Below, one piece after another: positions 45,531 to 48,571 of a DNA stretch of 64,000 nt. Made by a program: the position numbers and the translations under genes. The DNA is from Escherichia coli. Lineage in GTDB: Bacteria; Pseudomonadota; Gammaproteobacteria; Enterobacterales; Enterobacteriaceae. Every line of letters starts with the position of its first letter. Position 1 is the first letter of the stretch. Where the stretch lies: NCBI RefSeq assembly GCF_050320075.1, contig NZ_CP190019.1; one strand, written 5' to 3'. The notes beneath the pieces were generated by a model that had not been told where the DNA came from, ran no database searches, and saw only the letters and a list, made by a program, of their open reading frames with translations.

Positions 45531-45568
45531 GGGGAGCCCGCAGAATTCGGAAAAAATCGTACGCTAAG
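45531..45568. repeat. Tn21/Tn1721-family 38-bp terminal inverted repeat (outer end of resistance transposon)
   Basis: GGGGAGCCCGCAGAATTCGGAAAAAATCGTACGCTAAG. Confidence 0.75.
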
Positions 45569-46275
45569 GTTTTCCGGGCATCCGTAAGGGCCGAAACTTC
45601 CCGTCTTCCAGTCTGCGGCTCTGCCGCCAGACGTAATCGCCGGTTAGGTTGATGTGCTCCCAGCCCAGCGGCGACAGGAATTGCAGCAGCTCGCCGTCCA
45701 CCGGCTTGCCGGCCTCGACCAACCCCTGGGTGGCGCGTTCCAGGTACACCGTGTTCCACAGCACGATAGCCGCCGTCACCAGGTTGAGGCCGCTGGCCCG
45801 GTAGCGCTGCTGCTCGAAGCTCCGATCCCTGATTTCCCCAAGGCGGTTGAAGAACACCGCCCTGGCCAGCGAGTTGCGCGCCTCACCTTTGTTCAGGCCG
45901 GCATGCACGCGGCGGCGCAGTTCAACACTTTGCAGCCAGTCCAGGATGAACAGCGTGCGCTCGATCCGGCCCAGCTCGCGCAGGGCCACGGCCAGTCCGT
46001 TCTGGCGCGGGTAGCTGCCGAGCTTGCGCAGCATCAGCGAGGCGGTGACGGTGCCCTGCTTGATCGAGCTGGCCAGGCGCAGGATGTCGTCCCAGTGGGC
46101 ACGCACGTGCTTGATGTTCAGGGTGCCGCCGATCAGCGGGCGCAACGTCGGGTAGGCTTGCACGCCCTGCGGCACGTACAGCTTGGTTTCGCCGAGGTCG
46201 CGGATGCGCGGCGCGAAGCGGAAGCCTAGCAGGTGCATCAGGGCAAAGACGTGATCGGTGAAGCCGGCCGTGTCG
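45564..46275 (-). pseudogene. tnpA: Tn21/Tn1721-family tnpA, 3' fragment (truncated by Tn3 insertion)
   Basis: 224-aa ORF (45564..46238) with Tn3-superfamily TnpA C-terminal sequence; ends inside the IR. Confidence 0.7.
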
Positions 46276-46313
46276 GTGTAGGGGTCTGACGCTCAGTGGA
46301 ACGAAAACTCACG
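46276..46313. repeat. Tn3 (Tn1/2/3) 38-bp terminal inverted repeat
   Basis: GGGGTCTGACGCTCAGTGGAACGAAAACTCACGTTAAG. Confidence 0.85.
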
Positions 46314-47616
46314 TTAAGCAACGTTTTCTGCCTCTGACGCCTCTTTTAATGGTCTCAGATGTCCTTTGGTCACCAGTTCTGCCAGCGTGAAGGAATAATG
46401 GCCGAGCATATTGATATGTCCGTGGCAAAGCGGGGAGAGGCGTGCGATATCTTCATCATTCAGTGTTTCACCCTGCGCCCGGAGATGATCCAGGGCTGCC
46501 TGCATATAAATAGTGTTCCATAACACGACGGCGTTAGTGACCAGCCCCAGTGTGCCCAGTTGATCTTCCTGACCGTCGGTATATCGTTTTCTTATCTCAC
46601 CTTTTTGACCGTGACAGATGGCTCTGGCAACGGCATGGCGACTTTCTCCCCGATTAAGCTGGGTCAGAATGCGCCGGCGGTAATCTTCATCATCAATATA
46701 ATTAAGCAGATACAGCGTTTTGTTGATGCGCCCCACTTCAATGATTGCCTGAGTCAGTCCGGAAGGACGTTCACTTTTCAGCAATGAACGGACCAGCACT
46801 GAAGCCTGTACTTTGCCCAGCTTCAGGGAGCCAGCGGTCCGGATCATTTCGTCCCACTGAAGGACTATTTTTCGGGGATCTGATTGCCCTCTGGCAATAT
46901 CATTCAGCACGCCATAGTCGGCATCATGGTCCATTCGCCAGAAAACCGAAGCACCGGCATCAGCCAGGCGTGGAGAAAACTGGTATCCCAGCAGCCAGAA
47001 AAGGCCAAAGACAAGTTCGCTGGCACCTGCTGTATCGGTCATAATTTCGGTTGGATTCAGCCCGGTCTCCTGTTCCAGAAGACCTTCCAGCACAAAGATA
47101 GAGTCCCTCAGCGTCCCCGGTATAACGATGCCATGAAAGCCGGAATACTGATCGGACACAAAGTTGTACCAGGTGATCCCTCTGTTATTACCAAAGTATT
47201 TGCGGTTCGGTCCGGCATTGATTGTTCTGACTGGCGTAACAAAGCGCATTCCATCTGCAGATGCCACTTCTCCTCCACCCCATATCTGTGCCAGTGGCAG
47301 CGTTGCCTAAAAATCAACCAGTCTGGCATTAGCGCTGGTGATAGTTTCAGCCCGCAGATAGTTCGCTTTTGTCCAGTTCAGCCGGTGTCGGGTCAGTGCA
47401 GGAACATTTGATCTGATCAGTGGTTCCAGACCGATATTGCAGGCTTCAGCCATCAGCACGGCGCTGATGCTGACGGGCAGATCATCAACTCTGGCACTGG
47501 CTTCACTAGCATGGAAAAACTCATCAGCAAATCCGGTATGGGCGTTAATTTCGAGCAGCAACTCCGTTAAATCCACCGGAGGGAGTAGATCACTGATCAT
47601 TTTGCTCAGTCGTTTC
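46314..47616 (-). pseudogene. tnpA: Tn3-type tnpA, C-terminal ~435 codons (truncated by IS26)
   Basis: ORFs 46314..47267 and 47307..47621 translate to contiguous Tn3 TnpA sequence (…LKRLSKMISDLLPPVDL… to …LRPLKEASEAENVA*); one frameshift between them. Confidence 0.8.
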
Positions 47617-48435
47617 GGCACTGTTGCAAATAGTCGGTGGTGATAAACTTATCATCCCCTTTTGCTGATGGAGCTGCACATGAACCCATTCAAAGGCCGG
47701 CATTTTCAGCGTGACATCATTCTGTGGGCCGTACGCTGGTACTGCAAATACGGCATCAGTTACCGTGAGCTGCAGGAGATGCTGGCTGAACGCGGAGTGA
47801 ATGTCGATCACTCCACGATTTACCGCTGGGTTCAGCGTTATGCGCCTGAAATGGAAAAACGGCTGCGCTGGTACTGGCGTAACCCTTCCGATCTTTGCCC
47901 GTGGCACATGGATGAAACCTACGTGAAGGTCAATGGCCGCTGGGCGTATCTGTACCGGGCCGTCGACAGCCGGGGCCGCACTGTCGATTTTTATCTCTCC
48001 TCCCGTCGTAACAGCAAAGCTGCATACCGGTTTCTGGGTAAAATCCTCAACAACGTGAAGAAGTGGCAGATCCCACGATCCTCAACACGGATAAAGCGCC
48101 CGCCTATGGTCGCGCGCTTGCTCTGCTCAAACGCGAAGGCCGGTGCCCGTCTGACGTTGAACACCGACAGATTAAGTACCGGAACAACGTGATTGAATGC
48201 GATCATGGCAAACTGAAACGGATAATCAACGCCACGCTGGGATTTAAATCCATGAAGACGGCTTACGCCACCATCAAAGGTATTGAGGTGATGCGTGCAC
48301 TACGCAAAGGCCAGGCCTCAGCATTTTATTATGGTGATCCCCTGGGCGAAATGCGCCTGGTAAGCAGAGTTTTTGAAATGTAAGGCCTTTGAATAAGACA
48401 AAAGGCTGCCTCATCGCTAACTTTGCAACAGTGCC
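47617..48435 (+). mobile_element. IS26, copy A (819 bp; frameshifted tnp26 allele)
   Basis: 14-bp IRs GGCACTGTTGCAAA at both ends; tnp26 split into two ORFs by a 1-bp deletion. Confidence 0.9.
47680..48383 (+). pseudogene. tnp26: tnp26 with -1 frameshift after codon ~136 and G184N-type substitution
   Basis: …KKWQIPRSSTRIKRPP… instead of …KKWQIPRFINTDKAPAYG… seen in intact copies B/C; downstream frame reads …KRIINATLGF…. Confidence 0.8.
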
Positions 48436-48571
48436 GCCCCAGCAGCATCTCCAGCTGTGAACGCTGTTCGGCTGACGGTATCAGTGCCAGTTTGTTCCAC
48501 AGGCGCAACGTCGCCTTTTCCCTTACCTCTGAAATCAACCGGGTCAGCGTAGTGGCTCCGGGGAGAATAAT
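48436..48571 (-). pseudogene. tnpA: Tn3-type tnpA internal fragment (residues ~150-195)
   Basis: Reverse translation IILPGATTLTRLISEVREKATLRLWNKLALIPSAEQRSQLEMLLG matches Tn3 TnpA as recalled; implies internal deletion across IS26 copy A. Confidence 0.65.

Follow-up and report, generated by a model that had tools for sequence, protein, structure and literature searches.

The question raised by this locus is whether a series of transposon fragments interspersed with IS26 represents one large transposon that has decayed, or several unrelated pieces brought together. The window, ie the whole stretch of 64,000 nucleotides of Escherichia coli DNA that was analysed, had been read in an earlier note as containing one Tn21-like transposon, running from an inverted repeat (IR) at 45531 to beyond the integron, entered by Tn3 and then shortened by IS26. 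All the elements named there are present, far above chance. Their proposed common origin was not upheld. With a probability of about 0.85, the region consists of pieces of three different mobile elements, none of them still active, and is the left edge of a mosaic of multiresistance DNA in a ColV-type IncF plasmid. At least three independent modules are joined by IS26, namely a Tn1721 end containing Tn2 (Tn1721::Tn2), an oqxAB module of the pOLA52 type, and a Tn21 integron. The features are given in Table 1.

Table 1. Features at the left boundary of the resistance region (positions are those of the window)
Feature	Position	Strand	Details
yacB toxin gene, intact	45176-45457		Pfam ParE_toxin
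yacA antitoxin gene remnant	45454-45528	-	last 75 bp (25 codons); cut by Tn1721 end
Tn1721 38-bp terminal IR	45531-45568	+	exact 38/38, single copy
Tn1721 tnpA 3' fragment	45564-46280	-	last 238 codons and stop; Pfam DDE_Tnp_Tn3 positions 176-389 of 389
GTGTA, left copy of Tn2 5-bp target-site duplication	46276-46280		Tn1721 reference reads ...GGTGTA then GTGCTCC
Tn2 38-bp IR (IRL, tnpA end)	46281-46318	+	exact 38/38, single copy
Tn2 tnpA C-terminal part	46314-47616	-	codons 569-1001 and stop; Tn2 positions 1-1336; Pfam DDE_Tnp_Tn3
IS26 copy A	47617-48435	+	819 bp, 14-bp ends intact
Tn2 tnpA internal piece	48436-48572	-	codons 157-201; Tn2 positions 2436-2572
Gram-positive-origin segment	48573-49719		bleO (blmS) and nim-like gene
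bleO (blmS) without first 5 codons	48574-48963	+	NCBIfam bleO model positions 6-134 of 134
orf63, nim-like pyridoxamine-phosphate-oxidase gene	49283-49675	-	
ΔISEnca1 (IS1380 family)	49720-49957	+	truncated by IS26 copy B
Tn6010	49958-56803		IS26 copy B, oqxA, oqxB, oqxR, IS26 copy C
IS26 copy B	49958-50777		inverted
IS26 copy C	55984-56803		inverted
Tn21 tnpR codons 1-90	56804-57073	-	truncated by IS26 copy C; Pfam Resolvase
Tn21 res/tnpM region up to integron boundary	57074-57574	-	100% identity to reference L005
Class 1 integron IRi	57550-57574		exact 25/25

The Tn1721 end and the Tn2 within it

The Tn1721 IR occurs once in the window, against none expected from shuffled sequence, and corresponds to 8346-8383 of the stretch of pCERC5 that was compared. 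Over 45531-46280 the alignment gave 750/750 identity to Tn1721/TnAs1 and 83% to the tnpA of Tn21. What remains of yacA matched the 3' end of the pCERC5 gene at 100%; the 5' 195 bp are absent from the window and from the related plasmid pSCZE2. No other Tn1721 IR or Tn1721 sequence was found within the window, and all of pSCZE2 outside the part equivalent to the window contained neither a second Tn1721 IR nor the 5' part of yacA. Its tet(A) is present only as an 874-bp fragment. The Tn1721 sequence at 45531 is a remnant, not a transposon. The outer end of Tn1721, ie the IR with 750 bp of tnpA sequence, abuts the truncated yacA, and AAGTA (45526-45530), beside the IR, would be one copy of the Tn1721 target duplication.

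According to PMC6205034, Tn1721 contains three IRs and part of its tnpA is duplicated. The fragment seen here is the natural partial duplicate at the tet(A) end rather than part of a working tnpA, and the IR at 45531 would accordingly be the outer IR of that end. Since the two tnpA copies are identical over the retained 750 bp, this assignment rests on the Tn2 junction shared with pCERC5 and reference L009, not on sequence differences. In L009 the Tn1721 homology past Tn2 spans 1,041 bp and is followed by pecM-tet(A)-tetR. In pCERC5 the GTGTA-flanked Tn2 lies in the tet(A)-end copy, beside the tet(A) module, and therefore tet(A), not tnpR and an integron, originally lay to the right.

The earlier note correctly placed a Tn3-family transposon inside a Tn21-family tnpA; it is Tn2 (blaTEM) in the tnpA of Tn1721, and the 5-bp duplication marks a true transposition. 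The Tn1721/Tn21-type fragment is indeed cut by a Tn3-family IR, but the IR starts at 46281 and not at 46276, Tn1721 sequence continuing to 46280. The 38-bp Tn2/Tn3 IR occurs once in the window (none expected from shuffles). In pCERC5 an intact Tn2 of 4,950 bp, with GTGTA on both sides, lies inside a complete Tn1721 that has the target duplication TTTAT. The left Tn1721-Tn2 junction was at least 80% covered in 125 records. The predicted right junction, IRR followed by GTGTA and Tn1721, was found at 100% over 90 bp among the single-piece matches listed, and was at least 80% covered in 79 plasmid records. Two other plasmids were considered and rejected as examples of Tn1721::Tn2: the 745-bp match in pC15-1a is the functional tnpA end beside tetR, truncated by IS26, and in p3347684I_3 the context is different, with IS26 adjoining Tn2.

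The occurrence of Tn2 within a Tn1721 derivative has been described for ColV F2:B1 plasmids and pCERC5 (PMC6807379). The window shares with Tn1721::Tn2 of pCERC5 and p2009_36_F (ColV/ColIa F2:B1) the Tn2 insertion point, its orientation, the GTGTA and the partial tnpA copy by the outer IR, and 45531-47616 aligns with pCERC5 at 99.8%. The insertion of Tn2 into the Tn1721 tnpA sequence, with duplication of GTGTA, is the one that is seen intact in pCERC5. Whereas both transposons are complete in pCERC5, in the window Tn1721 is reduced to 750 bp and Tn2 to 1,473 bp, and the Tn1721 end abuts yacA, with AAGTA as the flank in place of TTTAT.

Only positions 1-1336 and 2436-2572 of the 4,950 of Tn2 are present, and none of tnpA, res, tnpR, blaTEM and IRR is intact. 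The first piece is identical at 1334/1336 positions to Tn2 of pCERC5, pOLA52 and reference L003, and the second at 137/137 to pCERC5 and L003. Assignment to Tn2 was made by identity to the pCERC5 element, which is named Tn2 in PMC6807379. A CAG to TAG change at 47307-47309 introduces a nonsense codon in the C-terminal piece. The two variable sites in its 1,336 bp, one of them private, are uninformative for tracing lineage.

The oqxAB module and the gap in the Tn2 transposase gene

Positions 46281-56803, which begin with the Tn2 IRL and end with IS26 copy C, are the published pOLA52-type module ΔTn2-IS26-ΔTn2-blmS-orf63-ΔISEnca1-Tn6010. A ΔTn2-IS26-ΔTn2-blmS-orf63-ΔISEnca1 fragment of 3,678 bp upstream of Tn6010 is identical in pOLA52, pHXY0908, pHK0653 and pHNSHP45-2 (PMC5645526), and the same ΔTn2-to-Tn6010 module is named in PMC6288184; it is also present in pHNLDF400 and pHNYJC8. 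The equivalent in the window (46281-49957) is 3,677 bp because IS26 copy A is 1 bp short. The identity of 46279-54382 to pOLA52 41896-50000 was 99.9%, position 50000 being the end of the pOLA52 stretch compared, and the breakpoints in Tn2 tnpA, bleO and ISEnca1 are the same. In the window, IRL lies next to GTGTA within Tn1721, and IS26 copy C adjoins the ΔtnpR of Tn21; in pOLA52, by contrast, the Tn2 IRL has TTATA beside it in an IncX1 backbone, and ΔtnpR-blaTEM-1-IRR comes after IS26 copy C. The window also differs from pOLA52 in having a frameshifted 819-bp variant as IS26 copy A and in the private nonsense change in tnpA.

Two non-adjacent parts of a Tn3-family tnpA, flanking IS26 copy A and separated by a deletion of about 360 codons, had been described before. 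The two parts and the gap are real, but the internal part is 137 bp and ends at 48572 rather than 48571, and the gap spans Tn2 positions 1337-2435, a loss of 1,099 bp or about 366 codons. Its attribution to an IS26-associated deletion agrees with the present results, the two tnpA pieces being collinear and split by an IS26 whose flanks, GTCGTTTC and GCCCCAGC, do not form an 8-bp target duplication. Such a duplication would be missing after either an adjacent deletion or recombination between two IS26. The window has eight IS26 terminal repeats (none expected). Copy A is 819 bp instead of the standard 820 bp owing to a 1-bp deletion; the same unusual deletion is present in copy D, and in both copies Tnp26 is frameshifted after residue 133 and stops at codon 171. 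The tnp26 reading frame is intact in copies B and C.

The gap probably arose by intramolecular replicative transposition of an IS26 already within tnpA, with deletion of the adjacent DNA, an event which would leave a single IS26, collinear flanks and no 8-bp duplication. Homologous recombination between two IS26, one at Tn2 1336/1337 and the other at 2435/2436, on one or two Tn2-bearing molecules, would give an identical product. IS26 is abundant in such plasmids, and recombination and inversion between copies are evident in the relatives. However, this route would require two independent insertions in the same orientation within 1.1 kb, and we regard it as somewhat unlikely. A simple IS26 insertion, with its 8-bp duplication, was found at neither tnpA breakpoint among plasmid records, where a combined 180-nt query of the two junctions gave half-length matches only; that result is against the two single insertions, and equally gives no support to an adjacent deletion.

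Beyond the internal tnpA piece is DNA of Gram-positive type. Positions 49166-49957 matched an Enterococcus faecalis plasmid at 99.9%, and the bleO segment is identical in pOLA52. It is followed by an element named ΔISEnca1 in PMC5645526 and PMC6288184, the IRR end of which (CCTAAATTCCACGT at 49720) points towards the bleO segment and is 87% identical to the IRR end of ISEcp1. ISEnca1 may have brought the segment, as DNA lying downstream of it, into codon 156 of Tn2 tnpA. The junction at 48572/48573 could then be the outer end of a one-ended, ISEcp1-like transposition unit of ISEnca1, which brought about 1.15 kb of Enterococcus/Staphylococcus-type plasmid DNA into Tn2; this proposal is tentative, and we put it at less than even odds. 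There is no IS end at that junction, where the ISEnca1 IRR is matched at only 4 of 14 bases. The IRL side of ISEnca1, at which a 5-bp duplication would be expected, is deleted in the window, and a complete ISEnca1 was absent from the Enterococcus plasmid pAFL-J5, in which it is truncated by another IS6-family element. If the proposal is true, the unit is a preserved trace of the direct capture of Gram-positive DNA by an enterobacterial transposon, which is not spelled out in the accounts cited.

Homologous recombination in the shared Tn2 or IS26 sequence probably joined the pOLA52-type interior to the GTGTA junction of the pCERC5 type. The pOLA52 structure, of 11.8 kb, is bounded by both Tn2 IRs (IRL and IRR) with a 5-bp duplication of TTATA, and could have moved en bloc; on that account the whole oqxAB-containing Tn2 derivative, from IRL to IRR, would have transposed into what was left of the Tn1721 tnpA, using TnpA provided in trans and independently of the pCERC5 Tn2. 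We consider this improbable, as it needs a second insertion at the exact base, in the orientation and with the GTGTA of the pCERC5 Tn2. Moreover, GTGTA does not come after the Tn2 IRR in the relatives examined; the IRR of pSCZE2 adjoins ATATC, beyond which is tet(A) in inverted orientation.

The Tn21 block and the question of a single ancestor

The tnpR fragment beyond IS26 copy C, recognised in the earlier note, is real. It is 100% identical to Tn21-type tnpR (references L004 and L005) and 77% identical to that of Tn1721. The adjoining tnpM gave a match to the C-terminal part of an EAL domain. The tnpR-tnpM-integron block as a whole (56804-61436) has 4633/4633 identity to a Tn21 derivative, with IRi inserted in urf2M. 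That derivative, a Tn21 with a dfrA12-orfF-aadA2 class 1 integron in pCRE-213-1 (IS1-catA1-Tn21), has the same canonical order of tnpR-res-tnpM-IRi. In contrast to it, the window lacks tnpA and the 3' half of tnpR, which were removed by IS26, and its sul1 is truncated by IS26 copy D. Nothing links this block to the IR at 45531; it is Tn21, of an unrelated insertion lineage, attached via IS26.

A single Tn21-like ancestor, extending from the IR at 45531 through tnpA and tnpR to the integron and broken later by Tn3 and IS26, is very improbable. Orientation had been called consistent with it, and tnpA, tnpR and intI1, all on the minus strand of the window, do have the relative orientation of Tn21. 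That argument fails in two of the three close relatives examined, pSCZE2 and pTBH7P2, in which the integron block is inverted. Alignment to Tn1721 (L002 and pCERC5) and Tn21 (L004 and L005) references gave breakpoints and identities that oppose it, the left fragment being 100% Tn1721 and the tnpR-integron block 100% Tn21, and the shared Tn2 junction puts the former at the tet(A) end of Tn1721. A search beyond position 64000, made in relatives, revealed no second Tn1721 IR in pSCZE2. There the 5 bp beside the Tn21 IRmer are TAATA, which also flanks the Tn21 IRtnp in the IS1-catA1 context, and not AAGTA. Nor can recombination at res have parted the two transposition genes, since tnpA and tnpR are not on opposite sides of it. 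The last alternative, chimeric joins made in assembly from collapsed repeats, is scarcely credible: consensus polishing of repeats could yield the identical 1-bp deletion in IS26 copies A and D, but pTBH7P2 also has an 819-bp copy A, and the same junctions recur across numerous plasmids sequenced independently, with at least 80% of the whole 45300-49000 arrangement covered in 65 plasmid records, among them pOLA52, published years earlier.

Significance of the arrangement

The arrangement is already known, published and common in plasmids, and there is nothing new in the structure itself. The remnants serve no function today except as homology and IS26 ends available to later rearrangements, and the significance of the finding beyond annotation is small. 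The resistance region was assembled from modules and is not what is left of a single large transposon after decay. Naming its pieces correctly helps in tracing the spread of the oqxAB and integron modules among the ColV virulence plasmids of E. coli from livestock and humans.

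Tn2 insertion in a Tn1721 tnpA gene

The structure is real but ordinary, being a common, published mosaic. A Tn3-family element nested in a Tn21/Tn1721-type tnpA and an IS26-associated deletion, both claimed in the earlier note, hold with small coordinate corrections, but a single Tn21-like ancestor does not. All reference elements were drawn from annotated plasmids: L002 and the complete copy in pCERC5 (L011) for Tn1721 (PGAP label "TnAs1 family"), L003 and pCERC5 for Tn2, and L004 and L005 (pCRE-213-1) for Tn21 (PGAP label "TnAs3 family"). The features are listed in the table.

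Features of the resistance region (window coordinates)
Feature	Position	Strand	Remarks
Tn1721 38-bp IR	45531-45568		GGGGAGCCCGCAGAATTCGGAAAAAATCGTACGCTAAG; exact; single copy in 64-kb window; 0 expected in shuffles
Tn3-family DDE transposase domain	45564-46274	minus	Pfam profile positions 176-389 of 389
Tn2/Tn3 IR	46281-46318		GGGGTCTGACGCTCAGTGGAACGAAAACTCACGTTAAG; exact; single copy in 64-kb window; 0 expected in shuffles
Tn2 positions 1-1336	46281-47616		tnpA codons 569-1001 + stop; 2 substitutions
Tn3-family DDE transposase domain	46314-47267	minus	Pfam profile positions 99-389 of 389
Tn3-family DDE transposase domain	47307-47615	minus	Pfam profile positions 1-84 of 389
IS26 copy A	47617-48435		819-bp variant
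Tn2 positions 1337-2435			absent; 1,099 bp, about 366 codons
Tn2 positions 2436-2572	48436-48572		tnpA codons 157-201; 137/137 identical
IS26 copy B	49958-50777		canonical; inverted
IS26 copy C	55984-56803		canonical; inverted
Resolvase N-terminal domain	56777-57073		Pfam
Tn21 integron block	56804-61436		ΔtnpR, res, tnpM, IRi (57550-57574), intI1, dfrA12-orfF-aadA2, qacEΔ1, Δsul1
IS26 copy D	61437-62255		819-bp variant

Alignment of 45531-46280 gave 750/750 identity to Tn1721, against just 83% to Tn21 tnpA. After GGTGTA the Tn1721 reference continues with GTGCTCC and the window with GGGGTCTGA, so the Tn2 IR starts at 46281, with GTGTA (46276-46280) as the 5 bp next to it; the IR that the earlier note saw cutting the tnpA fragment is present, though not at 46276, where it had been placed. 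The right junction was predicted by joining the Tn2 IRR end, GTGTA and the continuing Tn1721 sequence. It was matched at 100% over 90 bp in the single-piece matches listed and covered to at least 80% in 79 plasmid records, and the left Tn1721/Tn2 junction was covered to at least 80% in 125. Insertion of Tn2 at this site is a real and widespread event. The complete Tn1721 of pCERC5 (L011 8346-24428, duplication TTTAT) holds an intact 4,950-bp Tn2 (L011 9096-14045) with GTGTA on each side, and window 45531-47616 aligns with L011 8346-10430 at 99.8%.

To the right of Tn2, in both pCERC5 and L009, there is only 1,041 bp of Tn1721 tnpA homology, followed by pecM, tet(A), tetR, an internal IR, and then full-length tnpA and tnpR. 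That layout fits the literature description, in which Tn1721 carries three IRs and part of tnpA is duplicated at the tet(A) end (PMC6205034). The tnpA 3' fragment in the window is thus most plausibly the outer copy, which was already truncated, and the tet(A) module would have been its original right-hand neighbour; the assignment rests on the shared junction because the two Tn1721 tnpA copies are identical across the retained 750 bp.

Of the yacA antitoxin gene, truncated by the Tn1721 end, only the last 25 codons are left, and the yacB (ParE-family) toxin gene is intact (window 45176-45530). A 101-codon fusion ORF (45454-45759) starts in Tn1721 sequence and continues into what is left of yacA. 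The arrangement of 45300-49000 was covered to at least 80% in 65 plasmid records. Among those listed, nine also share the yacB flank and others begin right at the Tn1721 IR. In the near-identical pEC21-2, PGAP places a 1,273-aa 'anti-phage transmembrane ATPase' immediately upstream of the resistance region and near an integrase gene; its equivalent place in the window is about 38790-42611, minus strand.

IS26 copy A and the gap in Tn2 tnpA

Eight exact 14-bp ends mark the four IS26 copies. Copy A sits between the two retained Tn2 tnpA pieces, and its flanks, GTCGTTTC and GCCCCAGC, show no 8-bp duplication. Two tnpA pieces with a deletion of about 360 codons, as first noted, is essentially right, and collinear Tn2 pieces around an IS26 lacking the duplication bear out its association with the deletion. 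Intramolecular replicative transposition of IS26 would give such an adjacent deletion, leaving a single IS26 between collinear flanks that lack the duplication. The identical product would come from recombination of two IS26 copies. Because single-insertion junctions with 8-bp duplications, predicted for both breakpoints, gave only half-length matches in the search, the choice between adjacent deletion and IS26-IS26 recombination is one that we infer.

One of the Tn2 tnpA substitutions is nonsense, CAG to TAG at 47307-47309 (A at 47309). It was not found in pOLA52, pCERC5, pSCZE2, pEC21-2 or L003, and amounts to harmless decay, the gene being dead.

Copies A and D are one identical variant with G459A, deletion of T463, A466C and GG613-614AA. 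GG613-614AA turns codon 184 from Gly to Asn, which we take to be a known IS26 variant; loss of T463 shifts the Tnp26 reading frame after residue 133, and the shifted frame stops at codon 171. The same copy A is present in pTBH7P2, whereas pOLA52 has an IS26 with G459A and GG613-614AA but without the frameshift.

The oqxAB module and its bleO segment

Window 46279-54382 aligns with pOLA52 41896-50000, which is as far as the comparison extends, at 99.9% identity and with zero differences over 48436-49957. At 3,677 bp, window 46281-49957 is one base short of the published ΔTn2-IS26-ΔTn2-blmS-orf63-ΔISEnca1 fragment (PMC5645526), the base being the deletion in IS26 copy A. A module of roughly 10.5 kb with the same make-up is named in PMC6288184. 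In pOLA52 it lies between Tn2 IRL and IRR with TTATA flanking both, so that one interior occupies two Tn2 insertion sites, TTATA in the IncX1 backbone and, in the window, GTGTA in Tn1721. We favour homologous recombination in shared Tn2 or IS26 sequence as having joined the interior to the GTGTA site. A second en bloc transposition, which would have had to enter exactly the pCERC5 site, seems less likely, the SNPs in Tn2 being too few to decide between the two.

At 48572|48573, where no IS end was found, Tn2 tnpA (codon 156/157) meets bleO without its first five codons (NCBIfam model 6-134 of 134). An in-frame TAG created there closes the bleO reading frame upstream. The segment terminates in a truncated IS1380-family element, ΔISEnca1. 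The IRR end of this element, CCTAAATTCCACGT, lies at 49720 on the other side of the 1.15-kb segment and is 87% identical to that of ISEcp1. Window 49166-49957 is 99.9% identical to Enterococcus faecalis pAFL-J5, and E. faecium plasmids gave short matches at 100%. Judged by sequence, the bleO and nim-like gene segment (48573-49957) is of Gram-positive origin. An ISEcp1-like transposition unit would be a reasonable source, but the far boundary (48573) matches IRR at only 4/14 bases and the IRL side is gone.

Separate history of the Tn21 integron block

The earlier note had one Tn21-like transposon running from 45531 past the integron. Reference alignments give Tn1721 on the left and Tn21 on the right, and the single ancestor is rejected: the tnpR fragment, codons 1-90 at 56804-57073, matches Tn21 tnpR at 100% identity and that of Tn1721 at 77%, and the integron block is identical to a Tn21 derivative at 4633/4633 positions. 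In neither transposon does res separate tnpR from tnpA, and a hybrid formed at res would therefore not bring Tn1721 tnpA together with Tn21 tnpR. Orientation, which had been taken as consistent with one element, is a weak argument, since of three plasmids only pEC21-2 matches the window and the block is inverted in pSCZE2 and pTBH7P2. The inverted segment in pSCZE2 is that between the inversely oriented IS26 copies B and D, with oqxAB and the Tn21 integron (window 49957-62256, L006 5959-18259); pTBH7P2 (L014) lacks oqxAB. IS26-mediated rearrangement is active among these near-identical plasmids.

Up to IS26 copy B, pSCZE2 and the window are collinear, and neither a second Tn1721 IR nor the 5' part of yacA was found anywhere in it. 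At the far end of its resistance region, TAATA lies between Tn21 IRmer (L006 47009-47046) and IS1, and the same 5 bp precede the Tn21 IRtnp (L005 2708-2745) of pCRE-213-1, in an IS1-catA1-Tn21 context. TAATA at both ends speaks for Tn21 having inserted separately, and suggests that the two ends descend from one insertion, presumably of the Tn2670/R100 type.

Elsewhere in pSCZE2 (L006 30295-31206) a Tn2 IRR beside blaTEM-1 is followed by ATATC and an inverted 874-bp Tn1721 tet(A) fragment. Intramolecular transposition of Tn2, or recombination of Tn2 copies in inverted orientation, should leave such a pattern, with the tet(A) end of Tn1721 turned round. On that reading, a large part of the resistance region would span from Tn2 IRL (window 46281) to the IRR of pSCZE2.
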